NCBI GenBank assembly: GCA_022823765.1
Contig: JAJEHK010000328.1
Location: forward strand, 1 to 41,441
DNA from: Alphaproteobacteria bacterium
GTDB lineage: Bacteria > Pseudomonadota > Alphaproteobacteria > SP197
DNA: 41,441 bases
Direction: 5' to 3'
Below the pieces are notes generated by a model. It worked only from the letters and a program-made list of their open reading frames with translations, had not been told where the DNA came from and searched no databases. Of the stretch, positions 1,951 to 37,357 are shown in pieces (the first letter of the stretch is position 1; every line of letters starts with the position of its first letter). A program made the position numbers and the translations under genes.

Positions 1951-2996
1951 GCTTCTCCATCTCCTTCCAGGTCGAGTTCCTCGTCGCCGAGGTGCGCGAA
2001 AAGGGCGGCGACCTCGGCGGGTGTGACATCCTCGAGACGGGCATGGCGCCAGCGCGGGCGGCGATCCCTGTCGATGATCGTCGCGCGGATGCCCTCGAGG
2101 AAGTCCGTCTGCTGCGTCGCCCGCCAGGCAAAGCGAAATTCCATGGCAAGGCAACTTTCGAGATCTGCATGGCGGCGCGCCCGGCGCACGGCCTCGAGTG
2201 CACAGGCGACCGACAGCGGCGAGTGACGCCGGATGGCGCCCAGAGCCTCGAGAGCCCATGGCGAGGACGATCTTTCCAGCCGGGCAACGATGGCCGGGCC
2301 GTCGGCCTCGGAGAACGCTTCGTCGATCTCGTCGAGGCGCGGGGCGAGGACGCCGGCGGGCGGCGTGCCGGCGAGGCCGTCGATGGCGCCGGTTCCCCGG
2401 GTCTCCAGGCCTCTTGCCAGCTCCGGGAGGCGATCTGACGGCATGAAGCGGTCGGCAAAGCCGGCAGCGATGGCGTCCGCCGGACCCATGCGCGTGGCCG
2501 TCATGGCGAGATACTCGCCCAGTCTCCCGGGCGCGCGGGACAGGATCCAGGTGCCGCCGACATCGGGGAGGAATCCGATGGACACCTCCGGCATGGCCAC
2601 CACGGTTCGTTCGGTGACGATGCGATGTGATCCGTGGGCCGACACGCCCACGCCGCCACCCATCACGATGCCGTCCATGAGCGCGACAAAGGGCTTGGGA
2701 TAACGTGCGATCATCCGGTCGAGCCGGTATTCATCGCGCCAGAAGGCGCGTCCGAAGGCGTGATCCCCACCCTTGCCGTGTTCCCACAGACCGAGAATGT
2801 CGCCGCCCGCCGAGAAGGCCCTGTCACCGCGTCCCTCGATGACGACGCCGGTGACGTCGCCGGCATCTCGCCATGTCCTGAGCACCTCGAGGAGCTCTCT
2901 CACCATGGCGTGGGTGAGGGCATTGAGAGACCCGGGCCGGTCCAGCACGAGGCGGCCGAGGCCTCCCTCGCACCATGCCTGGAGATCCTCGGTCAC
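1947..2996 (-). CDS. 3-hydroxyisobutyryl-CoA hydrolase (enoyl-CoA hydratase/isomerase family)
   Basis: GTG 2996 in a GTGA overlap with the acyl-CoA dehydrogenase stop; AFSAGGDI, MDGIVMGGGVG, MPEVSIGFLPDVGG, DFLEGIRA..IDRDRRPRW. Confidence 0.88.
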   Translation of the reverse strand: MTEDLQAWCEGGLGRLVLDRPGSLNALTHAMVRELLEVLRTWRDAGDVTGVVIEGRGDRAFSAGGDILGLWEHGKGGDHAFGRAFWRDEYRLDRMIARYPKPFVALMDGIVMGGGVGVSAHGSHRIVTERTVVAMPEVSIGFLPDVGGTWILSRAPGRLGEYLAMTATRMGPADAIAAGFADRFMPSDRLPELARGLETRGTGAIDGLAGTPPAGVLAPRLDEIDEAFSEADGPAIVARLERSSSPWALEALGAIRRHSPLSVACALEAVRRARRHADLESCLAMEFRFAWRATQQTDFLEGIRATIIDRDRRPRWRHARLEDVTPAEVAALFAHLGDEELDLEGDGEA

Positions 2997-4138
2997 GTAT
3001 CCCGGCCGGTCAGCGCGCGGCCGATGATGAGGCGCATGATCTCGTTGGTGCCCTCGAGTATCTGGTGCACCCTGAGGTCGCGCACGATCTTCTCGATGCC
3101 GTAGTCCGCGAGATAGCCGTAGCCTCCGTGGAGTTGCAGGGCGTCGTTGGCCACGCGAAACGCGGTGTCGGTGACGAAACGCTTGGCCATGGCGCACTGC
3201 ACCGTGGCATCGCCGGCGCCGTGATCGAGCTTCCACGCGGCCTGACGCAACAGGCTGCGTGACGCCTCGAGTTCCGTCGCCATGTCGGCCAGCCGAAATT
3301 GCAGGGCCTGAAACCGGTCGAGGGTCGTGCCGAAGGCGCGGCGCTCGCTCATGTAGGCGATGCTGCGGTCAAGGGCTTCCTGGGCCGCGCCAAGGGAGAC
3401 GGCGGCAATGTTGAGACGGCCGCCGTCGAGACCCGCCATCGCCTGGTGGAAGCCGGCGCCGGTCCCGCCCACGAGGTTGCCGGCCGCGACGCAGCATTCG
3501 TCCATGATCACGTCGGCCGTGGGCTGTGCCCGCCATCCCATCTTCTCTTCCAGCGCACCGAATTCGAGGCCGGGCGTGCCGGCCTCGACGACGATGCACG
3601 AGATGCCTCGCGGTCCCGCGTCGCCGGTGCGCGCCATGACGAGATAGAGATCGGCCAGTCCGGCTCCGGAGATGAAGCTCTTGGTGCCGTTGAGCACGAG
3701 AGAATCGCCGTCGTCGCGGGCGCTCGTAAGAAGTGCGGCGGCATCGGACCCGCTGCCGGGTTCGGTCAGGCAATAGGCGGCGACGAGGTCCAGCGTCACG
3801 AGTCCGGGGAGCCAGCGCGCGCGCTGGGCCGGTGATCCGTACTGGTCGATCATGGCCGCGCACATGTTGTGGATGGAGACGTAGGCCGCGATCGAGGGAC
3901 ACCCGGCGGCCAGGGCCTCGAACACGAAGGTGCCGTCGAGCCGGGAAAGGCCTGCGCCTCCGAATTCCCCGGCGACAAACAGTCCTCCCAGGCCGAGCTC
4001 TCCGGCCTCGCGAAGCAGGGACCTTGGTATGGTCCCGGCTTCCTCGAGATCCCGGGCCACGGGTGCAAGACGGTCACGTGCGAAGGCCCGGGCCATGTCG
4101 AACATGGCCAACTGTTCCGCACTCGGCTCAAGATTCAT
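2993..4138 (-). CDS. Acyl-CoA dehydrogenase, probably isobutyryl-CoA dehydrogenase
   Basis: SIHNMCA, YCLTEPGSGSDAAAL, KMGWRAQPT, GLDGGRLNI, LHGGYGYL, RVHQILEGTNEIMR. Confidence 0.9.
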   Translation of the reverse strand: MNLEPSAEQLAMFDMARAFARDRLAPVARDLEEAGTIPRSLLREAGELGLGGLFVAGEFGGAGLSRLDGTFVFEALAAGCPSIAAYVSIHNMCAAMIDQYGSPAQRARWLPGLVTLDLVAAYCLTEPGSGSDAAALLTSARDDGDSLVLNGTKSFISGAGLADLYLVMARTGDAGPRGISCIVVEAGTPGLEFGALEEKMGWRAQPTADVIMDECCVAAGNLVGGTGAGFHQAMAGLDGGRLNIAAVSLGAAQEALDRSIAYMSERRAFGTTLDRFQALQFRLADMATELEASRSLLRQAAWKLDHGAGDATVQCAMAKRFVTDTAFRVANDALQLHGGYGYLADYGIEKIVRDLRVHQILEGTNEIMRLIIGRALTGRDT

Positions 4139-4335
4139 GCGACGTCATTTCCGGCCGCGCCAGCGTCGATAGCTCCGGTGGTGGCCAGCACACTATTTCC
4201 CGCTCTCGATGCCGTCCACCGCAAGAGGGAGGATCGATGACCGGAACGGCTCTCTGCCTCATCGCCGCCCTTCGGCAGGCTTGCGGGCCGCTCGTTCAAC
4301 GATCCTGATCGCAGGAAGGGCGCAACCGCGCCTGG

Positions 4336-5019
4336 TTATCCGTCACCGGATCCCCTGGATGGAGCGCCGGATGACGGACCGTGACTGAACACCCCGGCGG
4401 CGGGCTGGATGGCGAGGTCGAGCGCGGTCAGAAAGGTCCGGCCGATCAGTTCCAGCTTGCGCACCAGACCGATGCGTTCGGCGATCCCGGCCAGTTCGTC
4501 GGCGGACAGGACATGGCCGATCAGCCCGCAGCCGTCTGCCAGCGTGACGATCACGATATCCCTCGGCTCGGGAATCGTGTCGGTCAGGAGCACGTCCCGG
4601 ATTCGTCCGAACAGCTCGCGCTCGACACTTGCATCGGCGAGGGCATAGTGCCGTGTGCCGAATATCCTGAGGAAGCGGTCATCGCTGACATCGAGGATGC
4701 CGTTGTCGACCAGGCGCGCCAGTGCGGTTTCGCGAATTGCGTCGGCGTGGTGGGTCGCATGCTCCACCCAGTAGAGCGCGTCGCGGGTCTGGTCGGATTG
4801 CGCAATCTCGACGAGTATCGGATCAAGCAGGGGATCGCCAACCGGCGCCGCGTCGATGAGGAACAGCCGCTCGGCATCGGTGTCGATGCGATTCTCCAAT
4901 GCGAGGTCCATCAGGACTGCCCCGCCCAGCGCGTAGCGGACCAGCCATTCCGGGGCCCGCGACAGCGCCCCGTCCTCGTCGCGGAGCAGGAGAAGGAACT
5001 CCTCGGCGAGCCTCATCAT
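4336..5019 (-). CDS. GOLPH3/Vps74 (GPP34)-like protein
   Basis: ATG 5019 overlaps the pit stop (ATGA); LAEEFLLLL, ALGGAVLMDLALENRI, GDPLLD..L..I, LARLVDNGIL....RFLRIFGTRHY resemble bacterial GPP34 family proteins. Confidence 0.75.
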   Translation of the reverse strand: MMRLAEEFLLLLRDEDGALSRAPEWLVRYALGGAVLMDLALENRIDTDAERLFLIDAAPVGDPLLDPILVEIAQSDQTRDALYWVEHATHHADAIRETALARLVDNGILDVSDDRFLRIFGTRHYALADASVERELFGRIRDVLLTDTIPEPRDIVIVTLADGCGLIGHVLSADELAGIAERIGLVRKLELIGRTFLTALDLAIQPAAGVFSHGPSSGAPSRGSGDG

Positions 5020-6284
5020 CCGGCCCCCTGAAGGAATACCGCAGACAGGACGAAGTAGAACGCAACCGCGAGCGCCGCTCCGACGGGAAGCGTCACCACC
5101 CACGATACGAAGATGTTGCGGACCACGCCCAGGTCGAGGGCGCCCACCCCACGCGCGAGACCCACCCCCAGCACGGCGCCCACCAGAGTCTGGGTGGTCG
5201 ATACCGGAAGTCCCGTGCCGCTCGCCACGACGACCGTCGACGCTGCGGCAAACTCGGCGGCAAATCCGCGGCTCGGCGTGAGCTCGGTGATTCTCCTCCC
5301 GATGGTCGCCATGACCCGGTAACCGAATGTCGCCAGGCCGACCACGATTCCGGCTGCGCCGACCAGCAGCACCCAGACCGGAACCGCCGACTTGGCGGCG
5401 ACCCCTCCGGTCGACACCACGCCCACGATCGCCGCGACAGGCCCGATCGCGTTGGCGACGTCATTGGAGCCGTGCGCGAAGGCCATGCCCGACGCGGTCA
5501 CGATCATGAGGATGCCGAACACCTTCTCGACGTCGTTGAACCGCGATTGCCCCCCTGTGGGAGATTCGAGGCTCTGGAAGCGCAATCTGTTGATGACCAG
5601 TCGGAAGATGATGGCGACGATGCCGGCCAGGAGCACCGAATACAGGATCGCCATCGGCATGCTGAGATCCAGGCCGACATGCTTGAGGCCCTTGACGAAG
5701 GTCACGGTGGCGGTCACGAGCACAGCCGCGAAGACGTAGACGGGCACATACCTTCGGGCCTGGATGGCCGGATTGTCCTTGTCGAAGATCAGCCACTGCA
5801 CGCTCAGCACCAGGAGAAACGCGATCAGTCCGGCGATCACCGGGGTGACCACCCAGCTTGCCGCGATCGTTGCCACGTCCCACCAGTGGACGGCCTCGAT
5901 GCCGATTGCGACCACGGCGAACCCGATGATGGCTCCGACGATCGAGTGCGTGGTCGATACGGGCCAGCCGAACCTGGAGGCGACCGTCAGCCAGGCGGCA
6001 GCCGCCAGAAGCGCCGACAGCATGCCGACGACCAGCAGATCGGGATCGTGCTCGAGAGCCTCGGCGTCGATGATGCCCTTGCGGATCGTCGAGGTGACCT
6101 CTCCGCCGGCAAGAAAGGCCCCGAGGAACTCGAATGTTCCGGCGATCACGATGGCGCCGCCGACCGTGATCGCGCCTGAACCAACCGACGTTCCCATCGA
6201 GTTGGCCACGTCGTTGGCGCCGATCGCCCAGGCCATGTAGAGACCGGCGGCGATTGCCGCGATCAGGATGATGGTCAGGCTCAT
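5016..6284 (-). CDS. pit: Inorganic phosphate transporter, PiT family
   Basis: Two PiT signatures GANDVANSMGT and HGSNDVANAIGP; PVSTTH and PVSTTQ; many hydrophobic segments. Confidence 0.93.
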   Translation of the reverse strand: MSLTIILIAAIAAGLYMAWAIGANDVANSMGTSVGSGAITVGGAIVIAGTFEFLGAFLAGGEVTSTIRKGIIDAEALEHDPDLLVVGMLSALLAAAAWLTVASRFGWPVSTTHSIVGAIIGFAVVAIGIEAVHWWDVATIAASWVVTPVIAGLIAFLLVLSVQWLIFDKDNPAIQARRYVPVYVFAAVLVTATVTFVKGLKHVGLDLSMPMAILYSVLLAGIVAIIFRLVINRLRFQSLESPTGGQSRFNDVEKVFGILMIVTASGMAFAHGSNDVANAIGPVAAIVGVVSTGGVAAKSAVPVWVLLVGAAGIVVGLATFGYRVMATIGRRITELTPSRGFAAEFAAASTVVVASGTGLPVSTTQTLVGAVLGVGLARGVGALDLGVVRNIFVSWVVTLPVGAALAVAFYFVLSAVFLQGAG

Positions 6285-6865
6285 GTCCACGGAGTAAGGC
6301 TCCCGGCTCCATCGCCGTTCGGCATGGGCATTCCAACGCACATCCGGTTCGAGTTCAACGTGCGCTTGCGCAACAGGGAAACACACCTTGCGGTCATCGG
6401 TCCCGGTCAGTCAGCCGCCCGTGCGACCGTTTCCCGGAATTCCTGGACGGCGCCGGCTCCCTTCCTGGATCACCACGCGAGGTTCCTGCCGGAAACCGCG
6501 CACGTCGTCCGTGACGTGATGCGTCAACCGGAGCCTCGTTCGCCATGGCGCCTTGTGCCGCATGTCCGCCGACCCGGTTCCACGCAAGACCGGGTGCGTC
6601 CTGCGCGGGACCCTTGCCTCACGTCCCGGGGGTGTTGCACGAAGCACCCCGTCCACTATCCTGTGATCTTGATGGATGCGTGAACTGCACCACAGGCATC
6701 AGGATATCAGCATGGCCCCATGTCCACGCTGAGATGCGGGCCTGGATGGATGACGCCCGCGACGGGTCCTGTGAGTTCCGACCCGCAAGGGGGAAGCCTG
6801 AGGGGCGGAGATAGCCAGACGAACCTGCAGGGCCTTCGCCCTGTTGTTCAAACCGGAGACATATC

Positions 6866-7858
6866 ATGCAGAGTATCATGAACCTCTTGTATTCAGCGCG
6901 ATCGCTGACCGTGCGAAAGGGTCCGGTCGGTGCCGCCCTTTGCGGCCTTGCCTTCGTTTTCGTGCCCCATGCGCAGGCCACGGAAGTCATGGTGAGCATC
7001 AAGCCAGTCCATTCCCTCGTCTCCGGCGTGATGGGAGAGACCGGAGAACCCGGGCTGATGGTCACGGGCGCCGCGTCGCCCCATACCTACCAGATGCGCC
7101 CGTCCGAGGCACAGGCACTGAACTCGGCGGACCTCATAGTGTGGATCGGCGAGAACATGGAGATGTTTCTCGAGCGTCCCATCGAGAACCTCGGAGCCGA
7201 TGCCGAGGTCGTCACCCTGCACGAGGTGGCAAGGATGGAATTGCTGGAGACCCGCGAGGGCGGGCTGTGGCCCGACGAGCACGACGAGGACAAGGAAATG
7301 CACGTCGACGAGCATGACGATCACGGTCACGAGCACGGCGAGTTCGACATGCACATCTGGCTCGATCCGGGAAATGCCGGCCGGATTGTCGAAGTCTCCG
7401 CCGACGCGCTCAGTCGCACCGATCCTGACAATGCCGAGATCTATCGCGCCAACGCCGATGCGATGCTGGAGCGCATCGATGCGCTGGAATCGTCGCTCGT
7501 TGAGCAGCTTGAGCCGGTAAGGCAGCGTGCATTCGTCGTGTTCCACGACGGTTACCAGTATTTCGAACATGCATTCGGTCTCAACACCATCGGCGCCGTC
7601 GCCGTCGATCCGGGCCGCCCGCCCGGCACGAAGCGGATCGTCGAACTGCGCGCCGCCCTTGTCGAGCACGATGTCCAGTGCGTCTTCATCGAGCCCCAGT
7701 TTCCACCGGACCTTGTAGAGACCCTGATCGAGGGAACGGCCGTGCGGACCGCGGAACTCGACCCGATCGGTGTCGATTTCGAAGCCGGTCCGGACGCATG
7801 GTTCGAGACGATGCGCGCCATCGGCGACGCCATTGCCGGATGCGTGGGCGACCAGTGA
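6866..7858 (+). CDS. znuA: Zinc ABC transporter substrate-binding protein
   Basis: Signal peptide, VSIKPVHSLV, ASPHTYQMRPS, acidic His-rich loop, DMHIWLDP, VFHDGYQYFE; GGAG RBS. Confidence 0.9.
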   Translation: MQSIMNLLYSARSLTVRKGPVGAALCGLAFVFVPHAQATEVMVSIKPVHSLVSGVMGETGEPGLMVTGAASPHTYQMRPSEAQALNSADLIVWIGENMEMFLERPIENLGADAEVVTLHEVARMELLETREGGLWPDEHDEDKEMHVDEHDDHGHEHGEFDMHIWLDPGNAGRIVEVSADALSRTDPDNAEIYRANADAMLERIDALESSLVEQLEPVRQRAFVVFHDGYQYFEHAFGLNTIGAVAVDPGRPPGTKRIVELRAALVEHDVQCVFIEPQFPPDLVETLIEGTAVRTAELDPIGVDFEAGPDAWFETMRAIGDAIAGCVGDQ

Positions 7859-7995
7859 ACCAGGTGGAGTGCACACCTGACATTCGACTTGCGGGAGGAT
7901 CACCTGCGGTCCCCAGAATTTGGTAGGGCTGCATCGACATCTCCAGTGCCATCGCATACCTTGTGGCACCGGGCCCCGCTGGATGAAGCGCTGTC

Positions 7996-10284
7996 ATGGA
8001 TCAACTGACGCTGTTCTTCGATTTCCTGTGGTCGTCGTTTCTCGTTCTGGCGCCCATGCTTCTCCTCGGCCTTTTCCTGGCCGGGCTGATCCATGTGTTC
8101 ATATCGCGTGAGGCCGTTCTGAAGTGGCTGAAGCAGGACAGCCTCAAGTCGGTCTCTTCCAGCGCGGCCATCGGTGTTCCCATGCCGCTCTGCAGTTGTT
8201 CGGTGGTGCCGGTCGTGGCCGAGATGCGCCGCAAGGGAGCGTCCCGATCGTCCTGCATGTCCTTCCTGATTACCGCTCCGGAGACCGGAGTGGACTCGAT
8301 TCTGGTCACCCAGGCGTTCTTCGGCTTCATTCCCGCAATCGTGAGACCCGTCGTCAGCTTCATCACGGGCGTGGTGGCGGGCATCTTCTGTATCGGGTTG
8401 ATCCGCGGTCGCGACTCGTTCGATGCGGTCGCGGAAGACGAGGACCATGATCTCCACGATCACGATCACGATCACGGTCACGGCCACTCCCACGGTCACG
8501 GTCACTCCCACAGCCATGAACCGCTTATTCCGGGTGCTGACGACTGCTATGTGAGCGGGCGCGAACTCAAGGGCTTCTTCCTGGTCTGGCTTCGCCGCCT
8601 CAGCGAGAACGTGGGGAGGATCCGGACCACGACATGGATCAAGCCGGAGTTCTACCGCGCGTACCTCGAGCCTGCCAGGGAGACGCCGTCCACGAGTTCC
8701 GAGTCGGAACGGAATCTTGGTGGCGTCACCTTCGCGACCGTCTGTCGACACATCCTGCGTTACGGCTTCGTCGACGTCGCCGACGATATCCTGTTCGCCC
8801 TGCTGGTGGGTGTCGCGCTCGGCGGCGTCATCTATCTTGCGATACCCAGCGACCTCATGGCTTACGAGTACGCGCGCTGGATCTCGTATCCCGTCATGGT
8901 CCTGGTGGGTATCCCGCTCTATATCTGCGCCTCCGCCAGCACGCCGATCGCGGCGGCCCTGGTCGCCAAGGGATTCAGTCCCGGCGCGGCGCTCATCTTC
9001 CTGATGACCGGTCCTGCCACCAACACCGGGACGATCGCCATCATCGTGAGCCAGTTCGGCGCGCGCTTTGCCTCCGTCTACGTCGGCTCCGTGGTGGCCG
9101 TGACGATGGTTCTGGGCATCGCCATCGATCTCCTCATGATCGCATTCGGGCTCTCGCTTGCCGTCAACCTGGACGCTTCCGACTCACCGGCGATCATGAT
9201 CGTCCAGTGGGGCGGCGCCATCGGGCTCATCGCGCTCATCATCTGGCGGTTCCGTGCCGGAGCGTTGAAGAGCGGATACCACGATCTGCTTTCGAACATG
9301 CGCCCGGTTTCCGTGCCGTTCAAGGCATGGTGGTCCCGCGTGACCCGCAGTGCATCGGTGACGGGGACCATCAACCCGCGCACGCCGGCCGGAAGGGCCG
9401 TCTGGCTGGCACTCGTCGCCGCATTCCTGCTGAGCGGTTTCACGGTCGTGAAGCCCGGCGAAGTCGGCTACGGACGCCTTTTCGGCGCGGTCGTGTGGAA
9501 GGACCTGCCGCCGGGCCTGCACTACCTTGCGCCCAGCCCCTTCGTCAGCGCCGACAAGTGGCCGGTCAGCGAAGTGAAATCCGTCAACAGCGGAGGCAGC
9601 TACGAGTACCTCACCGGCGATGTCAATCTCATGTCCATGTCGGTGAACGTGCAGTACCGGGTCAGCGATCCCTACTCCTATCACTATCGGACCGCGAACC
9701 CTGAACAGGCCATCGTCGACAATGTGCGCAAGGAACTCCGCAAGTTCGTGGCCGGGCGGTCCCTGGACGACCTGCTGAACGTCGAACGCGCGGCCCTGCA
9801 AACCCACATTGAAGATGTCTTCGAGGATCGTGTTCCGGGCGGCGACAACGAAGTGCTCGACACCATCGAACTCGTCAAGGTGAACCTGCTTTCCGCGAAG
9901 CCCATCGATGCAACGATGAGCGCCTTCAGGGAGGTCTCGAGCTCCCAGGACGACAGGGAACGCATCATCGTCAATGCCCAGCGCCTGCTGGTCATGGTGA
10001 TACCCCGGGCGCATGGCAATGCGGCCTACGAACTCGAGCAGGCCAAAGGGGAAGCGGCAAGGAGGACGATCACCTCCGGGGCGGAGAGCGAAGCCATTCG
10101 CCTGATCGCCGGCGTGGTTCGCCTGACACCCGAAGTCCTTCGCAACATGCTCTGGAGGGAGAAGCTGGAGGTCTCTCTCGCCGGCAGGAGCAAGATCATC
10201 GTCCCGAGCGAGGAAACCCTGAACAGGGTAGCCTTGTGGAAATCATCGAACGGCGGCGCCATGCCCATGGCGCCCCACCACTGA
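7996..10284 (+). CDS. ArsP/DUF318 (SO_0444-like) metal permease with His-rich loop, fused to C-terminal HflK-like SPFH domain
   Basis: PLCSCSVVP, ITAPETGVDS, GIPLYICASASTPIAA, FLMTGPATN permease motifs; after a TM helix (~9400) FTVVKPGEVG...PGLHY...YLTGDVNL..V.VQYRV.DP and AFREVSSSQDDRERII..A...IPRAHG.A (HflK-like); one uninterrupted 762-aa ORF. Confidence 0.82.
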   Translation: MDQLTLFFDFLWSSFLVLAPMLLLGLFLAGLIHVFISREAVLKWLKQDSLKSVSSSAAIGVPMPLCSCSVVPVVAEMRRKGASRSSCMSFLITAPETGVDSILVTQAFFGFIPAIVRPVVSFITGVVAGIFCIGLIRGRDSFDAVAEDEDHDLHDHDHDHGHGHSHGHGHSHSHEPLIPGADDCYVSGRELKGFFLVWLRRLSENVGRIRTTTWIKPEFYRAYLEPARETPSTSSESERNLGGVTFATVCRHILRYGFVDVADDILFALLVGVALGGVIYLAIPSDLMAYEYARWISYPVMVLVGIPLYICASASTPIAAALVAKGFSPGAALIFLMTGPATNTGTIAIIVSQFGARFASVYVGSVVAVTMVLGIAIDLLMIAFGLSLAVNLDASDSPAIMIVQWGGAIGLIALIIWRFRAGALKSGYHDLLSNMRPVSVPFKAWWSRVTRSASVTGTINPRTPAGRAVWLALVAAFLLSGFTVVKPGEVGYGRLFGAVVWKDLPPGLHYLAPSPFVSADKWPVSEVKSVNSGGSYEYLTGDVNLMSMSVNVQYRVSDPYSYHYRTANPEQAIVDNVRKELRKFVAGRSLDDLLNVERAALQTHIEDVFEDRVPGGDNEVLDTIELVKVNLLSAKPIDATMSAFREVSSSQDDRERIIVNAQRLLVMVIPRAHGNAAYELEQAKGEAARRTITSGAESEAIRLIAGVVRLTPEVLRNMLWREKLEVSLAGRSKIIVPSEETLNRVALWKSSNGGAMPMAPHH
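8445..8517 (+). repeat. Low-complexity (CAC-GAT/CAC-GGT)n tract encoding the His-rich loop HDLHDHDHDHGHGHSHGHGHSHSH
   Basis: Imperfect 6-nt tandem units directly visible inside the permease ORF. Confidence 0.8.
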
Positions 10285-10294
10285 GACGATCACC

Positions 10295-10320
10295 CGGGCG
10301 CCTCCGTGGAGACGCGCCCG
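10295..10320 (+). other. Intergenic stem-loop between fusion gene and hflC-like gene
   Basis: CGGGCGC-CTCC-GT-GGAG-AC-GCGCCCG; no U tract, so more likely an mRNA stability/processing element than a terminator. Confidence 0.4.
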
Positions 10321-10345
10321 CTACCGGAGCCGTAGGAGACTCGCC

Positions 10346-11245
10346 ATGACCAGAGGCAAACGGATTGCAGCCGTCATCGCAGTCCTGCTACTCGCCATCC
10401 TTGCCTGGGACAGCATCTACACCATTGATGAATCGCAGCAGGGCGTCCTCACCAATTTCGGCAAGATTGCAGCACCGGTGAAGGAACCGGGCCTGCATTT
10501 CAAGTTCCCCTGGCCCGTCTCGAAGGTCTACAAGGTTGACCGGCGCATCCATCCGCTCACGAACCTCAGTCAGGAGCTCATTACCGAGGACCAGAAGAAC
10601 GTCCTGGTCGACGGCTACCTGTTGTGGCGCGTCACGGACCCGATTCGCTACGTGGAATCGATCAGAACCGAGGCCAGGGCCGTCGAGCGGCTCAGCGATC
10701 TCTATCGATCAAGCGCCGGAATCGTGGTCAGCAACAAGCCCCGTGAAGTGTTCGTGAGCCTCGGCCTGGAACATCGGGACGTCTCCCTGATCTCCGGCGA
10801 GGTCCTTGATCTCGTCAAGCCGATTGCCGGGGACTATGGCATAGACGTCATGAAGATCGGCATCGTCGAGTACACCCTGCCGGCGGAAAACCGTCCCAGT
10901 GTCATTCAGCGGATGATCTCCGAACGCGCCCGAATTGCCGCACGTTACCGCAGCGAGGGAGAGGAAGCGGCCATACGCATCGAGGCCTATGCCATCCACG
11001 AGCACGAAAAGCTCATGGCCACCGCCCATGCCGAAGCCACCACCATTCTCGGAGAAGCCGAAGCCGAGGCGATGACCACGCTGGCCGCCGCGTACAGTGA
11101 AGACCCTGAATTCTACAAGTTCATCCGGGCACTCGACAGCTACGATGCGATCATCGACAAGAACACGACGCTGATACTCCCCGCCGACAGCGAACTGTTC
11201 AGGTATCTTGACGGCGACGGGATGTTGCCACCGGCACCGGAGTAG
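10346..11245 (+). CDS. hflC: HflC-like SPFH (band 7) protein
   Basis: N-terminal TM, EPGLHFKFPWP, LITEDQKNVLVDGYLLWRVTDP, RMISERARIAARYRSEGEE.A, AYSEDPEFYKFIRALDSY; AGGAG RBS. Confidence 0.85.
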   Translation: MTRGKRIAAVIAVLLLAILAWDSIYTIDESQQGVLTNFGKIAAPVKEPGLHFKFPWPVSKVYKVDRRIHPLTNLSQELITEDQKNVLVDGYLLWRVTDPIRYVESIRTEARAVERLSDLYRSSAGIVVSNKPREVFVSLGLEHRDVSLISGEVLDLVKPIAGDYGIDVMKIGIVEYTLPAENRPSVIQRMISERARIAARYRSEGEEAAIRIEAYAIHEHEKLMATAHAEATTILGEAEAEAMTTLAAAYSEDPEFYKFIRALDSYDAIIDKNTTLILPADSELFRYLDGDGMLPPAPE

Positions 11246-11257
11246 CGGTTCGAACTC

Positions 11258-12646
11258 ATGTCTGACACCTCTGCCGAACAACTCCCCTGGAGCACGCGCC
11301 TCATCTACTCAAGCTTTGACTGGGTGCGTGAACGCCGTCTGCTTCTGTCCCTGTCACTCGTGATCCTTGTTGTGTTCGTCGTGCTGGCCAACGGCCTCTA
11401 CGTCGTGAAAAAGGAGGAGCAGGCGGTCGTCACGCGTTTCGGCAAGGTGGTGGAGACCGACGTCCAGCCCGGCCTTCACTACGTGTTCCCGCTGATTGAA
11501 CAGGCCCACGTGCGGAAAGTCATGCGCGTGACCCGGCGAAACGTGGCAACTCAGGATGCGGACGGTAATGTCTATTTTTCGATCCTTTCGGGCGACACCA
11601 ACCTCTTCGAGGTGGATGTGGCGCTGCAGTACAGGATCGGGAATCTGAGGAACTATCTCTACGCGACTGCCGACCCGCATGCTGTGCTCGCTCTCGTCGT
11701 GCGCGAACGCCTGGTCGGCAACATGAGCAACAGCTTCATCGATCTCATATTCACCAACAACCGCGACATCATTCAAAGGCGTCTGTTCGAGGAAACCGAG
11801 GACTTTCTGGACGCCAACGACATCGGCGTCGAGTTGCTGGCGCTCAATATCGTGGGCCTGCGCCCCATCGATGAAACCGTGGCCGCTTTCCGCGATGTGA
11901 GCGATGCCATCGCCGAGAGCATCGAGACCGTGAGCGAGGCCAACAAGCGGGCGGAACGGCTCCTGGCCCGCAGCAGGGGCCAGGCTGAAGCAGTGGTGCT
12001 GAACGCCCGGGCCAGGGCGAGAGAACGCCGGGTGCAGTCCGCGAGCAGCGCGCAGGCCTTTCTGGACCTGCTGGACGCCTATCGAAACGAGCCCTCCTCG
12101 GTATCCACGACACGCTACTGGCAGAGAATGCGTGAAGTCTTCCGGGAGGCGACCCTGGCAAAGGTCAATCCGGACGACACCTCGACCATCGACATCAACA
12201 TGATCGAGAGTTTCGTGCCTGGTGTTGGCAAATTGCCCGCCGTGACCGCAGCCGCTGCGGCGCCCCTGGGGAGCATCGCCGGCGCCGCGTCCTCGATCAC
12301 GCTCGCAAGCGAGAGAGGAGCACACGGTCTCGAGGCGGTGCAGTCGGATCGTTTCCTCCTGGACGGACGGTTCCATTCTCCCATGAGCGAGCGCCATCAT
12401 CTTGGCGCTGCCGAACTGCGTTCCCTGATCTTCGACGATCTTTCCATCTTCTCTCATCGCCATGTCGCACCGACACCTGTCTGGACTGCGGTGGAGCAGA
12501 CCGAACAGCCGATGGTCGAGTCGACGGTCATCGACACGAGCGAAGAGGTCCAGAAGGGGCGGGAAACCTCGACGGCGACGACAACCGACTCATCGGAAGG
12601 GCAACACGCGTCGGCAGAAGAGAAACAAGATGGCGGCAACCATTAG
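11258..12646 (+). CDS. hflK: HflK-like SPFH protein with long C-terminal extension
   Basis: TM helix, EQAVVTRFGK, PGLHYVFP, ILSGDTNL, LQYRI, AAFRDVSDA, ARSRGQA; ~130-aa tail with scattered His. Confidence 0.78.
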   Translation: MSDTSAEQLPWSTRLIYSSFDWVRERRLLLSLSLVILVVFVVLANGLYVVKKEEQAVVTRFGKVVETDVQPGLHYVFPLIEQAHVRKVMRVTRRNVATQDADGNVYFSILSGDTNLFEVDVALQYRIGNLRNYLYATADPHAVLALVVRERLVGNMSNSFIDLIFTNNRDIIQRRLFEETEDFLDANDIGVELLALNIVGLRPIDETVAAFRDVSDAIAESIETVSEANKRAERLLARSRGQAEAVVLNARARARERRVQSASSAQAFLDLLDAYRNEPSSVSTTRYWQRMREVFREATLAKVNPDDTSTIDINMIESFVPGVGKLPAVTAAAAAPLGSIAGAASSITLASERGAHGLEAVQSDRFLLDGRFHSPMSERHHLGAAELRSLIFDDLSIFSHRHVAPTPVWTAVEQTEQPMVESTVIDTSEEVQKGRETSTATTTDSSEGQHASAEEKQDGGNH

Positions 12647-13811
12647 CCGTGTTGCCGCCCTCTTCATTGTGCTGACGGCGAGAGCCGCCTTCGACGCGTC
12701 GGCAGCGGCGCCGGGCGTCACCGAGAACTCCATCGTCTTCGGACAGAGCGGTTGCTTCAGCGGCTCCTGCGGGTATGCGGGCAACCAGTACCGCGGTGGC
12801 ATACTGACCGCGTTCCATGAATCCAACAGCGCCGGCGGCATCAACGGCAGGCAACTGGTACTCCTGGCGCTGGACGACGGCTACGATCCGGACCGGGCGG
12901 CAGCCAACGCGGACAGGTTCGTCGCCGACGACGAAGTGTTTGCCGTCGTGGGCGGTGTCGGCACGCCGACGACGGAACGCATGGCATCTATCTTCAGGGA
13001 GGAGATGATCCCCTTCGTCGGCCACCTCACGGGGGCCGAGTTCCTGAGAGAAGTCCGCAGGTATCCCAACGTGGTGAACCTGCGCGCCGGGTATTCCGAG
13101 GAAACAAGGCGCCTGGTCGAGCACTTCGTCGAGAACCTGAATGCCCGCCGGTTCGGTATCATTCATCAGGACGACTCGTTCGGTCGCACCGTGATCACCA
13201 GCTACGAGGATGCCTTGAGAGCCTTCGATCTCTCGATCCTTGCCAAGGCGGCCTATTCGCGGCACTCCCACGCCGTGCACTCGACCGTGTTCGTCATGGA
13301 AAAGGCGGATCTGGACGTCGTGTTGCTGGCCACGACTCTCGGGCCGGCCGCCGAGGTGATCAACACGTCGCGATCCCTTGGCAACGACTATGCCTTCGGC
13401 CTCCTGTCCTTTGTGGACACCGGGCTCCTCGAGGCATCGCTGGACTTCTCGGACGAACGGATCTTCCTGACCAGAGTCATCCCGGACTTCGCCAACGAGA
13501 GCAACGCGTTGGTGAGACGTTTCCGTCTCGCCCTCGACGACTACCGGAACACCGATCCGGAGGTCGTGGAGGATGTCGTGAGCCTGTTCAGCCTGGAAGG
13601 CTACATCGTGGGTCGATTCATCGTCGAAGTTCTCAAGCGCATGCCGAACGAAATGAGTCGGGAGGTCTTTCTGACAACGGCACTGTCGCGGGATCCCGTC
13701 CATATCGACGACTGGGTCATCGCCTTCGACGAGGGCAGCAATGCCGGTTCGGACTACGTGCGAATCGTCGATCTTTCCGGCTACTATTCTGAAAGGGAGG
13801 CCGCCGAGTGA
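12630..13811 (+). CDS. Periplasmic binding protein, LivK/branched-chain amino acid (type 1) family
   Basis: ATG 12630 overlaps hflK end; signal peptide; PGVTENSIVFGQS, GGINGRQL, LDDGYDP, GVGTPT, NLRAGYSEET, QDDSFG, SLEGYIVGR. Confidence 0.8.
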   Translation: MAATISRVAALFIVLTARAAFDASAAAPGVTENSIVFGQSGCFSGSCGYAGNQYRGGILTAFHESNSAGGINGRQLVLLALDDGYDPDRAAANADRFVADDEVFAVVGGVGTPTTERMASIFREEMIPFVGHLTGAEFLREVRRYPNVVNLRAGYSEETRRLVEHFVENLNARRFGIIHQDDSFGRTVITSYEDALRAFDLSILAKAAYSRHSHAVHSTVFVMEKADLDVVLLATTLGPAAEVINTSRSLGNDYAFGLLSFVDTGLLEASLDFSDERIFLTRVIPDFANESNALVRRFRLALDDYRNTDPEVVEDVVSLFSLEGYIVGRFIVEVLKRMPNEMSREVFLTTALSRDPVHIDDWVIAFDEGSNAGSDYVRIVDLSGYYSEREAAE

Positions 13812-14296
13812 AGAAACTCCATGACTTTTCCCTTGAAGAGACCGGCCAGGAGTGGCTCCGGGAGGGATACAAGGTCGTTGCGATGCGCCGCAACGTCATG
13901 TTCCGGATGCTCCTCGAGTCGGTTCGTCTTCTCCTCTTCGGCAATGCCGGAGGCGCTGCCCTCATTATCGGTTTCATGAGCGCCACCACGGGTGAGAACG
14001 AGGGGGCCTTCCACTGGTTTGCGCTTGCGACGGTGCTGGTCTTCGGTCTGGGCACGCTGACATCGGCGCTGAGCATGATTCTCGTCACCCTGGTTTCCAT
14101 CAAGGAGGCACACGGTGCCGAAACCGCCCTGAAACGTTTCGCCGACGGCGACGACAACAATTTCCAGGTCATGTTCAATATCGAAGGCCAGACCTGGCGC
14201 CTTGCCGACTGGAGCACGCTCACCGGTATCGTCAGCGCCGCTACCTTCATCGTGGGCGGATTGGCCGGTGTCGCGCTGCTGGTGGTGTTCTTCTGA
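13808..14296 (+). CDS. Hypothetical membrane protein (about 3 TM helices)
   Basis: GTGA overlap with upstream stop, GGGAGG RBS, three hydrophobic stretches. Confidence 0.7.
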   Translation: MKKLHDFSLEETGQEWLREGYKVVAMRRNVMFRMLLESVRLLLFGNAGGAALIIGFMSATTGENEGAFHWFALATVLVFGLGTLTSALSMILVTLVSIKEAHGAETALKRFADGDDNNFQVMFNIEGQTWRLADWSTLTGIVSAATFIVGGLAGVALLVVFF

Positions 14297-14557
14297 AGAC
14301 CTCCACCGGTCTTCCGATTCGGATGCATGCCGCACCCGATCAGCCCAAGACTGGAAGCGTTGCGGCATTCTCCCCGACCGCAGCTTCGGATGGCTTTCCC
14401 GAGCATGAGTCCGGCCCGGCGCGCCGTGTCCTGATGGAGACGAACTGGCCGGTTCGGCAGTCTCCGATCGGGTCATCCCCTCGGGAGGGGCCACCAATGA
14501 ACGAAGTAGCAGGTCCTGTCGGGCCGCGGAATCCACCTGGCTCCGGGTGCGCGAACG

Positions 14558-15361
14558 ATGGCCGGTGACGTCTCACGGACACGACCGCTGATCGAGGCGC
14601 GGGGCGTAAGCGTGAATTTCGGGCGGCGCAATGTGCTGGACAAGGTGGACATTGCCGTCCATGCCGGGGAAATCGTGACCCTGGTCGGTCTCAACGGTGC
14701 GGGCAAGTCAACGCTGATACGCGTGTTGTTCGGTATCGTCCGTCCCGACCTCGGCACGGTCGCGCGAACCCCGGGACTGCGCATCGGCTATTCGCCCCAG
14801 CACGTACACCGCGATCCGATTCTTCCGATGACCGTCCGCGGATTCCTCACTCTGGGCGCGCCGGCGCCACGTGACAGACTCGAGAACGTGCTCTCTGAAG
14901 TCGGCGCCGGCGCGATTCTCAACCACCCCCTGTCCGAAGTTTCAGGTGGAGAGCTTCATCGCGTGCTTCTTGCGCGAGCCCTGTTGCGCGAGCCCGGCCT
15001 GCTCGTGCTCGACGAACCGCTTGCGGGAGTCGATGTTGCCAGCCAGGGCGAACTCTACCAGTTGATCGCGACCATTCGGGACCGCTATGGCTGCGGTGTG
15101 CTTCTCGTCTCGCACGATCTGCACATGGTCATGGCCGCAACGGACACCGTGGTATGCCTCAACCGGCATGTGTGCTGCACCGGCCATCCGAGAACGATCA
15201 CGCGCCACCCGGAATTCGTCTCCCTGTTCGGACCGCATGTGGCGAACGCGATTGCGGTCTACCCGCACCGGCACGACCATCGCCATGACGAGCATGGCAA
15301 TCCGGTGCCGATCGATGGCGACGGTCCGACAGGGCCTGACACGTTCGGCGGACGGCGATGA
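14558..15361 (+). CDS. znuC: Zinc ABC transporter ATP-binding protein
   Basis: Walker A GLNGAGKST, VSGGELHRVLLARAL, LVLDEP, SHDL, CLNRHVCCTGHP and His-rich C-terminus. Confidence 0.9.
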   Translation: MAGDVSRTRPLIEARGVSVNFGRRNVLDKVDIAVHAGEIVTLVGLNGAGKSTLIRVLFGIVRPDLGTVARTPGLRIGYSPQHVHRDPILPMTVRGFLTLGAPAPRDRLENVLSEVGAGAILNHPLSEVSGGELHRVLLARALLREPGLLVLDEPLAGVDVASQGELYQLIATIRDRYGCGVLLVSHDLHMVMAATDTVVCLNRHVCCTGHPRTITRHPEFVSLFGPHVANAIAVYPHRHDHRHDEHGNPVPIDGDGPTGPDTFGGRR

Positions 15362-16164
15362 CGGAAGATTTCGTTCTGCGCGCGCTCGCGGGCGGAATCG
15401 GCGCGGCGCTCGCGGCGGGCCCCGTCGGCTGCTTTGTCATCTGGAGACGCATGGCCTACTTCGGCACGGCGCTTGCCCATGCGGTGCTTCTCGGAATCGC
15501 TCTGGGCTTTCTCCTGGAACTGGAGCCGTTCGCCGGGGTCTTCGCCATGTGCTTCATCCTCGCGGGATGCCTGATTCTTCTGGAACGCCAGCGTCTCGTT
15601 TCTCTCGACGCCCTGCTCGGGGTGCTGGCCCACGCGGTGTTCGCGGCGGGCCTCGTCGTCATCGCGTTCATGGAACGCCTGAGGGTCGACCTTGTCGGCT
15701 ACCTCTTCGGCGACATCCTCTCCGTCGGCGCGGTCGACCTGTGGCTCATCTACACCACCGCGGCCGTTTCGATAGCCGCGCTTGTCTGGCAGTGGCGCAA
15801 CCTTCTCTCCGTGACCGTCAACCGGGACCTCGCCGCAGTGGAGGGAGTGCCCGTGGAACGCGTGCGGTTCCTGCTCCTGCTCCTGCTCGCCGGAGTGATC
15901 GCGGTGGGGATGAAGATCGTCGGAATGCTTCTCGTCGTGGCGCTGGTGATCATTCCCGCCGCCGCTGCGCGCCGCGTGTCGGCAACACCCGAACAGATGG
16001 CCGTTGCATCATCGATCATCGGAATCGTCGCGGTCGTCGCTGGTCTCTTCGGTTCGCTGGAGTGGGACGTTCCGGCCGGGCCGGCCATCGTGCTCGTCGC
16101 AAGCCTGGCCTTCGCCGCGAGCCTGCTCATCCCGAGCCGCAGCCGGCAGGGCCGCGAAGACTGA
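15358..16164 (+). CDS. znuB: Zinc ABC transporter permease
   Basis: ATGA overlap; GCFVIWRRMAYFG.ALAH, YLFGDIL, MKIVG.LLV.AL.IIPAAAAR, TPEQMA. Confidence 0.92.
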   Translation: MTEDFVLRALAGGIGAALAAGPVGCFVIWRRMAYFGTALAHAVLLGIALGFLLELEPFAGVFAMCFILAGCLILLERQRLVSLDALLGVLAHAVFAAGLVVIAFMERLRVDLVGYLFGDILSVGAVDLWLIYTTAAVSIAALVWQWRNLLSVTVNRDLAAVEGVPVERVRFLLLLLLAGVIAVGMKIVGMLLVVALVIIPAAAARRVSATPEQMAVASSIIGIVAVVAGLFGSLEWDVPAGPAIVLVASLAFAASLLIPSRSRQGRED

Positions 16165-16285
16165 TTCCCGGAACGCCCGTTGCAGGCGGCGGCCGTCCCG
16201 TCCGTTCCCCGGCGAACGTTCCTTGCCGGATGGTGACGGACAGGGCATAACCGGTCGGAACTGTCATCTTCGGGACATCAGGATC

Positions 16286-16810
16286 ATGGACATGAAGCTG
16301 CTTCACCGGGCGATCGGCGCCCTCGTCTTTCTGATCATCGCCTCTGGCGCCTCGGCGGCCGACATGGCCTCAGCACGAATCATCAATGCAGACGGGCTGG
16401 AGGTTGGCAGCGTGACATTCCAGCAGGCTCCCACCGGCGTGTTGGTGTCGGTTGACGTCACGGGATTGCCACCTGGCGGCCATGGTATTCATCTCCATGG
16501 CGTCGGATCCTGCTCCCCCGACTTCAAGGCGTCCGGAGGCCACATCAATCCTGAAGGCGTCCCGCACGGCCTGCTCAATCCCGGGGGCGGCGACAATGGC
16601 GACCTGCCCAATCTCTATGCGGCGGCGGATGGTTCCGCACGGGCCGAGTTCTTCACCACGCGCGTGTCGCTGAAAGGCGGCGATCTGCCCGCGCTGCTCG
16701 ACACGGACGGTTCGGCTGTCATCATCCACGCCAGCCCGGATGACCACATGTCTCAGCCTATCGGCGGCTCCGGCGGGCGTATTGCTTGCGGCTTGATCGA
16801 AGGCATGTAG
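16286..16810 (+). CDS. sodC: Periplasmic Cu/Zn superoxide dismutase family protein
   Basis: Signal peptide; HGIHLH, GGHINP, HG, GDLPNL, IIHA..DD, GGRIACG; start 16286 or 16292. Confidence 0.88.
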   Translation: MDMKLLHRAIGALVFLIIASGASAADMASARIINADGLEVGSVTFQQAPTGVLVSVDVTGLPPGGHGIHLHGVGSCSPDFKASGGHINPEGVPHGLLNPGGGDNGDLPNLYAAADGSARAEFFTTRVSLKGGDLPALLDTDGSAVIIHASPDDHMSQPIGGSGGRIACGLIEGM

Positions 16811-16880
16811 TTCCGGCCGTTCCGGGTGTGGCCGATGAGGCATTCCACCACTTTGGACCGGTAACCGAGACCGATCCGGA

Positions 16881-18290: not shown

Positions 18291-18317
18291 CGCTTCTCCA
18301 GATGACGGCAACGGGGC

Positions 18318-20841: not shown

Positions 20842-20870
20842 TGTATAGGTGAGGGGCCGGTTGAAGTCAA
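20842..20870 (-). promoter_or_regulatory. Sigma70-type promoter for rpmH operon
   Basis: Minus strand TTGACT-N17-TATACA. Confidence 0.6.
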
Positions 20871-20938
20871 TGATGACATTTCCTCTCACCTGCCATGCCG
20901 CTAGTGTGTCATGTCGATGGCTGAAGCGGGGGCGTGTA

Positions 20939-37081: not shown

Positions 37082-37357
37082 ATGGCTGTGCTTGACAAGC
37101 TCACCACCACCGTCTCGACGAAGGGTCAGGTCATTCTGCCCAAGGCGGTCCGCCAAGCGCTCCGCTGGCACGCCGGAACCCGACTGACGGTCGAGAACAC
37201 CGCCGACGGTGTGCTGCTCAGGCCCGAGCCCGCGTTTGCTGCAACCCGACCTGAGGATGTCTTCGGATGCTTGGCCGGCGATGTTGTCCCCAGATCCCTC
37301 GCTGACATGGAGGCGGGTATTCTGGAAGAGGCACGGCGTCGCCATGCGCGCAGTTGA
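37082..37357 (+). CDS. vapB: AbrB/MazE/SpoVT-family antitoxin
   Basis: TTVSTKGQVILPKAVRQAL.W..GT.L.VE...DGVLLRP; GAGGAG RBS. Confidence 0.88.
   Translation: MAVLDKLTTTVSTKGQVILPKAVRQALRWHAGTRLTVENTADGVLLRPEPAFAATRPEDVFGCLAGDVVPRSLADMEAGILEEARRRHARS

Follow-up and report, generated by a model that had tools for sequence, protein, structure and literature searches.

A metal permease fused to an HflK-like SPFH subunit heads a conserved gene unit in scattered bacterial lineages

We analyzed a 41,441-nucleotide contig (JAJEHK010000328.1, positions 1 to 41,441, assembly GCA_022823765.1; hereafter the window, meaning this whole stretch at its full length) from an Alphaproteobacteria bacterium, and focused on one gene whose product, here called K1, joins a metal permease of the SO_0444 family to an HflK-like SPFH subunit. 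Genes for an HflC paralogue (here C) and for a second HflK-like protein (K2) follow it, and the same triad accompanies the fused gene in relatives from several phyla. The covalent link shows that the SPFH subunit of K1 travels with a transporter, and we propose that K1, C and K2 may build a dedicated HflK/C-type ring that holds a metal permease in the membrane.

Domain architecture of the fusion protein

K1 is an uninterrupted open reading frame (ORF) of 762 codons that ends in ...APHH, as the original prediction, made from the sequence alone, had claimed. Using profile hidden Markov models (HMMs) from Pfam, we placed ArsP_1 (PF03773) on residues 5–377 (154.1 bits, cut-off 32.3) and Band_7 (PF01145, SPFH) on residues 484–657 (41.4 bits, cut-off 23.6), while the NCBIfam model NF033936 (SO_0444 family Cu/Zn efflux transporter) matched residues 12–416 with 321.7 bits, above its curated cut-off of 300. 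The C-terminal half also aligned directly with Escherichia coli HflK (7vhp_E residues 66–364 against K1 455–756, E 5.2e-21), and the best Foldseek matches of the full-length AlphaFold2 (AF2) model were HflK chains, e.g., 9cz2_XA at E 4.5e-12. Both Cys motifs, PLCSC and PLYICA, lie where the original prediction had put them, as does the His-rich loop, and the C-terminal SPFH and coiled-coil part that it described, following a linker and a transmembrane (TM) helix, is confirmed by the Band_7, TIGR01933 (hflK) and HflK matches. The features of the protein are as follows (pLDDT, predicted local distance difference test).

7996..10284, + strand: K1 fusion, 762 aa (SO_0444-family permease, linker, TM helix, HflK-like SPFH/coiled-coil half), from HMM and structure matches
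7996..9255, + strand: permease domain (residues 1–420), NF033936 321.7 bits; two repeats and then TM9 in the AF2 model
8185..8199, + strand: PLCSC motif (residues 64–68), in the loop of the first helix-loop-helix, between helices H50-60 and H67-79
8404..8520, + strand: His-rich part (residues 137–175) of a long central loop, predicted cytoplasmic, pLDDT <50
8914..8931, + strand: PLYICA motif (residues 307–312), in the loop of the second helix-loop-helix
9247..9384, + strand: basic linker (residues 418–463) with a predicted helix at 423–449, probably cytoplasmic from charge counts and conservation
9385..9441, + strand: TM10 (residues 464–482), counterpart of the single membrane anchor of HflK, from a hydropathy peak and helix H464-479
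9445..10284, + strand: SPFH domain, long coiled-coil helix (638–727) and C-terminal strands, probably periplasmic (Band_7 484–657, TIGR01933 484–741)

Conservation was pronounced at the motifs and in the linker. Across 77 fused and unfused relatives, P64, L65, C66, S67 and C68 of the first motif were invariant, as were Y309 and C311 of the second, with P307 and A312 conserved in ≥90%. Over 54 fusions, the central loop (residues 137–261) carried on average 15.9 His and 13.7 Lys plus Arg (K+R), and the linker 8.0 K+R versus 2.1 Asp plus Glu, with many linker positions ≥90% conserved. The hydropathy peak of TM10 lay at residues 468–486 (H=2.01).

The fusion is not an assembly artefact

Because the source genome is a fragmented metagenome-assembled genome (MAG; 349 contigs, 98.8% complete), we considered whether K1 could be an assembly error, a chimera or a pseudogene, i.e., two genes wrongly joined. 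To that end, the junction (window 9250–9450) was examined in Logan contigs from sponge-metagenome runs. A contig of run X1 (record 5), which may be the source sample, spans 8781–9972 with 0 differences from the window; a contig of X2 (record 12) spans 8757–9673 with 9 substitutions and no gap; and a contig of X5 (record 17), from a different study, spans all of 7900–10400 with 64 substitutions and a sole indel, a 12-nt in-frame gap at 8455 inside the His-rich loop. Contigs of three runs thus cross the junction without a frameshift. The His-rich loop differs in length among strains at window 8455–8472: a deletion of 12 nt that keeps the frame is present in X2 and X5 contigs, and 1-nt indels that compensate each other in one X6 contig.

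The same architecture is common among the closest relatives. A search of a 5.8-billion-protein collection with the K1 protein gave 747 matches among 8000 scored candidates, and the best 120 were examined: all are 656–819 aa long, 117 carry precomputed PF03773 and PF01145 matches, and the remaining 3 still cover 99% of the query. Where these 120 proteins are named, the name is solely "SO_0444 family Cu/Zn efflux transporter", and their MAG labels include Gammaproteobacteria, Defluviicoccus, Gemmatimonadota and Opitutae. In addition, three congeneric genomes, two of them single-contig assemblies, carry the fusion at 89–95% identity with no internal stops, and the linker sequence is conserved. 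Given the bridging contigs of other runs and the presence of both domains in 117 of the best 120 relatives, we regard the fusion as real and give an artefact a negligible chance. One relative, P0055, had a precomputed ZIP match that pointed to a ZIP–permease–SPFH triple fusion; this candidate was rejected, as the re-scan scored 32.2 bits, below 35.1, over a stretch that overlaps the ArsP_1 region (25–205).

Fused permeases are followed by HflC-like and HflK-like genes

Next, we evaluated the gene neighborhood across related loci. Genome contigs were scanned with the K1 protein (10 loci) and metagenome contigs with the 54-sequence alignment (80 retained out of 587 confirmed), and stop-to-stop ORFs of 84 loci, each given an L number, were scored by phmmer with parts of four triads as queries. 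A permease relative was present in 83 loci, 23 of them fused, 4 cut by a contig end and 56 unfused. For every fused locus with enough downstream DNA (18/18), an HflC-like and then an HflK-like gene lie directly downstream; four more (L028, L061, L069 and L084) have the HflC-like gene, followed by a contig end or a mere fragment. L034 is fused and has no downstream DNA, so that no fused locus with downstream DNA lacks SPFH partners. In the window the HflC-like gene starts 61 nt past K1, and such adjacency was seen in 22/22 fused loci with downstream DNA. The K-fusion/C/K triad of the original prediction is thus real and conserved, and it is kept in relatives only 27–33% identical (L002, L003, L044, L054, L061, L068, L069, L084 and L101, with the check for L061, L069 and L084 ending at the HflC-like gene). 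L003 comes from a Planctomycetota MAG and L002 from the MAG of an unclassified bacterium, and on NF033936 these distant fusions score 401.3 and 386.1 bits, respectively. As a side observation, L084 carries an extra HflC-like gene (L084:2870-3781) about 1.1 kb upstream of its fusion besides the downstream one, and the SPFH tree places both copies in one group (Shimodaira–Hasegawa-like approximate likelihood-ratio test, SH-aLRT, 92).

The unfused permeases, typically roughly 310–450 aa long, showed a different pattern: none of the 56 loci has an SPFH gene within flanks of up to 5 kb, many of the contigs being shorter. The original prediction had read the fusion as Rosetta-stone evidence that the SPFH client is a transporter and not a protease; that argument fails because it requires the split forms to stay associated, and 0/56 unfused loci have an SPFH gene.

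The conserved unit exceeds the three parts first noted, with genes for a binding protein and a small membrane protein also kept. Within the clade of the window, the binding protein follows K2 in 11/11 loci whose DNA extends that far, and the 162-aa protein occurs in 8/8, at 58–93% identity; neither was found in distant fused loci at E ≤ 1e-5. In the window the five genes are flanked by znuA upstream and znuCB downstream, and the whole series shares one strand.

5016-6386, − strand: PHO4 phosphate transporter, from the window gene order
6866..7858, + strand: ZnuA-like zinc ABC substrate-binding protein, Pfam ZnuA 226.9 bits; PRK09545 239.3, under its cut-off of 268
10346..11245, + strand: C, HflC-like subunit, 299 aa, one N-terminal TM helix, TIGR01932 171.9 bits, above cut-off 134.4
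11258..12646, + strand: K2, second HflK-like subunit, 462 aa, one TM helix, TIGR01933 129.8 bits, under cut-off 159.4
12323..12457, + strand: His/Asp/Glu motif in the K2 tail (residues 356–400), in at least 11 of 12 tailed K2 sequences
12630..13811, + strand: secreted type-I periplasmic binding protein (Peripla_BP_6), Pfam 149.6 bits, Sec-type signal-peptide-like N-terminus
13808..14296, + strand: 162-aa membrane protein of no known family, at least 3 hydrophobic segments, no Pfam match
14558-15361, + strand: ZnuC-like ATPase, ABC_tran 87.6 bits
15358-16164, + strand: ZnuB-like permease, ABC-3 231.4 bits

The genes are closely packed: the probable start of the binding protein overlaps the K2 stop by 17 nt, and the GTG start of the 162-aa protein overlaps the binding-protein stop. 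Atlas neighbors of the 162-aa protein are unnamed clusters only. An ORF at 6324-6683 (119 aa) was treated as spurious, having no family match and the Arg/Pro-rich composition typical of a wrong frame. No recognizable Zur-type box was seen by eye in the intergenic DNA at 6380-6880, 7840-8010 and 13790-14570.

K2 in the clade of the window has a probably periplasmic C-terminal extension of ~140 aa that is missing from 7 distant K2 sequences. Within it, H356, E359, D364, H373, E378, R379, H381, R388, S389, L390, F392, D393, S396, I397, F398 and H400 are each conserved in at least 11 of the 12 tailed sequences. We see in this tail a candidate element by which the SPFH assembly itself may bind or sense metal, a role suggested by its residues.

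The genome that carries this unit also encodes a canonical pair. On a separate contig (C211), hflK (260.9 bits, TIGR01933) and hflC (194.7 bits) are followed by a DegP-like gene, and the K1/C/K2 system is separate from this housekeeping HflK/C. The genome further encodes one FtsH (contig C115, 882.8 bits) and an unfused ArsP_1 paralogue (contig C147).

Phylogeny and distribution

Trees were built with the "quick" setting of IQ-TREE from 84 rows for the permease and 82 rows for the SPFH domain. In the permease tree, the window falls in a 22-row clade (SH-aLRT 100) on a stem of 3.58 changes per column, made up of 15 fused rows, 4 cut by a contig end and 3 unfused. Two of the unfused permeases, L001 and L039, pair as sisters with the fused L027 and L029. 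A weakly supported group (SH-aLRT 86) joins nine distant fused rows to two unfused rows on long branches. All three unfused permeases of the window clade (L001:5968-7320, L039:320-1606 and L043:4959-6266) are 429–450 aa long and 52–66% identical to the permease of the window, and in L001 unrelated genes lie downstream.

In the SPFH tree, C-type and K-type sequences split with SH-aLRT 100, the HflC-like protein of the window being on the C side and its K2 on the K side. All 24 permease-fused K1 domains fall in one group (SH-aLRT 97) separate from K2, and the K2 sequences form three groups in a polytomy. Five canonical HflK rows are sister to K1 at just 89, while a divergent K-like row from L010 groups instead with the K2 of L009, a locus described below.

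The full-length fusion occurs in 3 of the 22 other species of the genus, each with a K2 gene nearby. A sample of 400 genomes from the phylum gave no match at E ≤ 1e-60, the top candidates alone being scored. Among 300 other genomes sampled from Planctomycetota, the phylum of L003, 13 matched both halves and about 57 the permease only. Overall, the architecture is rare inside any one group, yet scattered over phyla, and the locus is accessory. Within the genus, G011 is syntenic with the window over 2365-18384, and G013 is syntenic only over 4317-16164; the latter limits suggest a mobile block that would run from a GPP34 gene to znuB.

Topology and predicted fold of the permease half

A permease-only AF2 model, built from the 77-sequence alignment, reached pLDDT 85.6 and a predicted template-modeling score (pTM) of 0.82. 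Each of its two repeats opens with a long helix, continues with a helix-loop-helix whose loop holds the Cys motif and then with a broken helix, and closes with another long helix; the broken helices are interrupted at APETG or GPATN, and TM9 follows both repeats. Averaged over the 54 fusions, K+R counts were 0.3 at the N-terminus, 2.9 after TM1, and 0.0 after both TM5 and TM8. By the positive-inside rule, the linker is probably cytoplasmic because it is basic, and TM10 would therefore run in-to-out, with the SPFH half in the periplasm; charge bias and homology to HflK both point to this orientation. Re-entrant Cys elements would further imply a cytoplasmic His loop and an inverted arrangement of the two repeats.

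To look for structural relatives, we compared the permease model with 48,161 chains using VIA-align. The top 13 matches were all elevator-type hairpin transporters (ArsB, Pho90, INDY, VcINDY, TRAP, DiT1, CNT, YdaH and NaS1) at Z 8.9–11.9, a range below about 13 in which scores may reflect generic helical packing, with 245–276 aligned residues and root-mean-square deviations of 4.5–6.3 Å; the next match falls to Z 5.3. Foldseek with the same model gave no match at E ≤ 0.001 (best E 0.065), and a sequence search for a solved permease structure returned none, HflK being the sole match. The VIA-align ranking suggests that the permease half resembles elevator-type proteins of the ion-transporter superfamily, of the ArsB, DASS, TRAP, CNT and AbgT kinds. 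It shares with ArsB (10tp), VcINDY (4f35), TRAP SiaQM (8b01), CNT (5l24) and YdaH (4r0c) two predicted helix-loop-helix elements and two broken helices, but has fewer helices than these transporters and no significant sequence or Foldseek match to them.

Divalent-metal transporters surround the fusion loci

Beyond the znuA and znuCB genes of the window, metal-transport genes recur at other fused loci. A ZIP gene directly precedes the fusion in L003 (136.6 bits), L044 (137.9 bits) and L054 (detected by phmmer), and one follows the 162-aa gene in L027, L029, L032 and L041 (58–68 bits). ZnuC follows the unit in L024 and L025/L026, ZnuA lies upstream in L024, and ZnuA with ABC-3 upstream in L042. 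A CzcA-type resistance-nodulation-division (RND) gene is found upstream in L027, with HlyD, and in L041, where it stands alone and is cut by the upstream contig end; a cation diffusion facilitator (CDF) gene is also upstream in L041, and a TonB-dependent receptor adjoins L029. The association with divalent-metal transport is thus consistent across loci, with uptake and efflux genes mixed. The K1 permease is probably specific for soft metals, most likely Zn(II) and possibly Cu, Cd or Co. As for direction, family precedent tips the balance somewhat toward export, though most neighbors are uptake genes.

A proposed dedicated ring for a metal permease, and the alternatives

Homology and gene order lead us to propose that the three SPFH proteins assemble into a dedicated HflK/C-type ring that holds a metal permease, with the binding protein and the small membrane protein as accessory parts, in the service of zinc homeostasis; we put the probability of this reading at roughly 0.55. 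Specifically, K1 would be the first gene of a tightly packed operon that continues with the HflC paralogue, K2, the secreted binding protein and the small membrane protein. A Cys-lined SO_0444 permease is joined, through the basic, probably cytoplasmic linker and the extra TM helix, to a complete HflK-type subunit that probably faces the periplasm, and K1, C and K2 would co-assemble as a hetero-oligomeric ring that lies against the inner membrane on its periplasmic side, distinct from canonical HflK/C. The permease would then be covalently tethered at a dedicated SPFH microdomain, which may cluster, stabilize or gate it within zinc homeostasis. A complex prediction of C with K2 (1–325) and K1 (460–762), with K1 as the partner chain, scored 0.45, 0.48 and 0.47, as compared to 0.60 for a K2-replaced control and 0.00 and 0.00 for partner-replaced controls, an outcome of "no answer" that speaks neither for nor against binding.

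A number of observations weigh against this reading or against the steps leading to it. On the TIGR01933 hflK model K1 scores 119.8 bits (residues 484–741), and since both K1 and K2 fall under the cut-off of 159.4, they are HflK-like and not HflK equivalogs. The full-length AF2 model of K1 is of merely moderate quality (pLDDT 70.4, pTM 0.47). Topology was derived from hand-set segments and charge counts and not from a dedicated predictor, and the topology published for the family, in the text of PMC7176098 available to us, is 4+4(+1) transmembrane segments within the TOG superfamily, which conflicts with the hairpin reading yet keeps the linker on the basic side. A promoter/terminator scan marked no operon ends, none of its sites lying at gene ends (1 promoter-like site against a mean of 2.1 in shuffled sequences, and 10 terminator-like sites against 5.8). 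The neighbors mix uptake (ZnuABC, ZIP, TonB receptor) with efflux (RND, CDF) and so point to both directions of transport, and the "efflux" label itself derives from distant unfused relatives, 33–36% identical, and from a zinc-stress phenotype reported for Shew_3410, a relative in the SO_0444 family (10.1101/072470, as far as its accessible part goes). The trees come from a quick method and contain long branches, and canonical HflK is represented by 6 rows, i.e., 5 from the genome of the window and four genus or class relatives, and the divergent one from L010. Permeases also exist without SPFH: L001, L039 and L043 nest in fused relatives and have no SPFH genes nearby, which we take as probably reflecting secondary loss of the SPFH half along with C and K2. 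Finally, a clade of fused rows only was rejected by the approximately unbiased (AU) test on the permease tree (p-AU 0.00017), because the unfused L055 is firmly sister to the fused L061, while the AU test did not reject holding together the window clade and the whole distant fused clade (p-AU 0.32), both groups having been chosen after inspection of the tree. These results therefore fit one ancient fusion that was later lost several times, though they do not prove it.

Other arrangements of the same parts lead to different predictions. The triad might still work with FtsH, the permease being presented to or shielded from the protease, so that metal-responsive proteolysis would set transporter abundance; the client would then be a transporter and the effector a protease. 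K1 does align with E. coli HflK 66–364, the part that builds the FtsH-holding cage, the genome encodes an FtsH, and the linker that replaces the cytoplasmic N-terminal region of HflK is strongly conserved. However, no ftsH turned up in Pfam scans of neighbors at the examined loci, the cell retains its canonical hflKC pair, and both K proteins fall below the HflK equivalog cut-off, and we consider such an adaptor unlikely. We hold it to be very unlikely that the SPFH half acts locally, regulating or oligomerizing the permease in small oligomers while K2 and C form a complex of their own with no shared ring. K2 and C alone would make a standard HflK/HflC-type pair, and the incorporation of K1 into a ring is deduced from homology, but C and K2 stand beside 18/18 fused permeases (four more in part) and beside 0/56 unfused ones, and in K1 the HflK architecture is complete, with both the long coiled coil and the C-terminal strands present.

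The direction of transport cuts across all of these readings. The fused clade may import metal or aid its acquisition, working alongside ZnuABC or ZIP when zinc is scarce; the SPFH assembly, the His-bearing K2 tail and the binding protein would then act in the periplasm. The placement of the unit between znuA and znuCB on one strand, the ZnuC genes after it in L024 and L025/L026, the ZIP genes downstream or directly upstream in seven loci and the TonB-dependent receptor beside L029 all agree with this, and the very long stem of the permease clade leaves room for a change of function. Against it stand the functional anchors for ArsP_1-type families, which in the portions of the sources at hand are efflux names only (SO_0444, SaoE) plus the zinc-stress phenotype, the RND and CDF efflux genes that flank L027 and L041, and the intergenic DNA read by eye, in which no Zur box or regulator was identified; uptake is therefore a possibility that we hold as doubtful. 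A more elaborate form of the ring proposal, which we think quite improbable, is a closed periplasmic K1/C/K2 cage in which permease-bearing K1 and spacer K2 would share the K positions around a metal-handling compartment. Up to a dozen tethered permeases would open into one enclosed periplasmic chamber that also holds the binding protein and the His-rich K2 tails, and this compartment would buffer zinc or pass it between the permease and ZnuA or ZIP routes.

Other SPFH fusions and further features of the window

A second design of long SPFH fusion was observed in a Verrucomicrobiota MAG (L009:1329-6556). There, a 627-aa protein combines a polytopic N-terminal domain (roughly 290 aa, 7–8 hydrophobic segments, no Pfam match) with an HflK-like half; downstream of it come genes for an HflC-like and an HflK-like protein, together with a P-type ATPase fragment. 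Among the matches listed for this fusion, 120 relatives (P0124-P0243), all of which have this architecture or align with it, are mostly from Verrucomicrobiota and named merely "protease modulator HflK"; 118 cover 94–100% of the query at 50–100% identity, and two shorter ones, P0162 and P0163, cover 81% and 72%. A CDF-like identity of the N-terminal domain (Atlas 0.90; one JGI name gives a divalent-cation transporter) was not confirmed, as Pfam Cation_efflux matched 0/31 members at E ≤ 1 and BLASTP of the domain against the CDF protein of L041 gave E 1.8. In the genome of L002, which has 9 Band_7 matches overall, two further SPFH proteins of 693 and 614 aa (L104:2124-4202 and L105:2196-4037, both on the − strand) have N-terminal regions of 250–300 aa without a Pfam match.

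GPP34 is an unusual family for bacteria. A GPP34 (Golgi phosphoprotein 3-like) protein is encoded at the edge of the shared block (window 4336-5103, − strand), and a 39%-identical homologue lies near the unfused permease in L001 (L001:10055-11101). Elsewhere in the window, a VTT/DedA-domain ORF occupies 20849-21667, and the domains of a pyridine-nucleotide-disulphide oxidoreductase begin after it, near 21688, in another frame; a 726-aa ORF (20911-23091) overlaps the VTT/DedA ORF, and two adjacent genes or a frameshifted fusion are both possible. A PIN-domain protein at 37209-37730, possibly the toxin of a toxin-antitoxin pair, lies amid housekeeping genes.

Relation to known systems and significance

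As compared to the E. coli HflK/HflC–FtsH complex (7vhp, 7wi3, 9cz2), the system described here has the same pair of K-type and C-type paralogues and the same layout of N-terminal anchor, SPFH domain, long coiled coil and C-terminal strands, with a periplasmic orientation that is likely for K1. It differs in having three SPFH genes (K1, C and K2) instead of two, in the 9-element metal permease that K1 carries where HflK has a cytoplasmic N-terminus, and in a host genome with an additional canonical pair, K1 and K2 themselves lying under the equivalog cut-off. Relative to the SO_0444 family (NF033936; ArsP/DUF318, TC 2.A.119), K1 scores above the cut-off and its Cys motifs are invariant, but it carries the linker, TM10 and the SPFH half in addition, and its clade, 30–40% identical to typical members, is set off by a long stem.

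Physical pairing of an SPFH assembly with a transport protein has a parallel in stomatin–aquaporin-1 (9zd2, as far as the accessible part of its description goes), and 9zd2_E is among the structural matches of K1. That eukaryotic link is non-covalent, homo-oligomeric and cytoplasm-facing, whereas the one in K1 is covalent, probably hetero-oligomeric and, by our topology, likely periplasm-facing. Bacterial SPFH–NfeD operons such as QmcA–YbbJ (8z5g; 8z5g_A is likewise among the structural matches) also pair an SPFH protein with a dedicated membrane partner in an operon, a theme set out in the sections of PMC2636767 available to us. In K1 the partner is a transporter fused in cis, and the SPFH type is HflK/C (SPFH3 in the naming of the same sections) and not stomatin-like SPFH1. 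Searches of full-text literature with supplements excluded, including the accessible parts of PMC2636767, PMC7176098 and PMC13086221, returned no description of a permease–SPFH fusion, and the term "SO_0444" was not found in the full texts searched. The fusion is thus apparently undescribed; databases hold both Pfam matches, yet name the proteins plain efflux transporters.

The roles of bacterial SPFH cages beyond the control of FtsH by HflK/C are an open question, and SPFH clients are hard to identify because their contacts are weak. In K1 a peptide bond fixes the client, and an operon conserved in several phyla names the partner subunits, making the composition and K1:C:K2 stoichiometry, the position of the client relative to the ring (inside or outside) and any effect on transport directly testable. 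The composite architecture is at present hidden under hundreds of entries named "SO_0444 family Cu/Zn efflux transporter" or "protease modulator HflK", and the models suggest an elevator-type fold for the uncharacterized DUF318/ArsP_1 permeases. If the cage were true, the second family in Verrucomicrobiota would make it a general design for metal transport.

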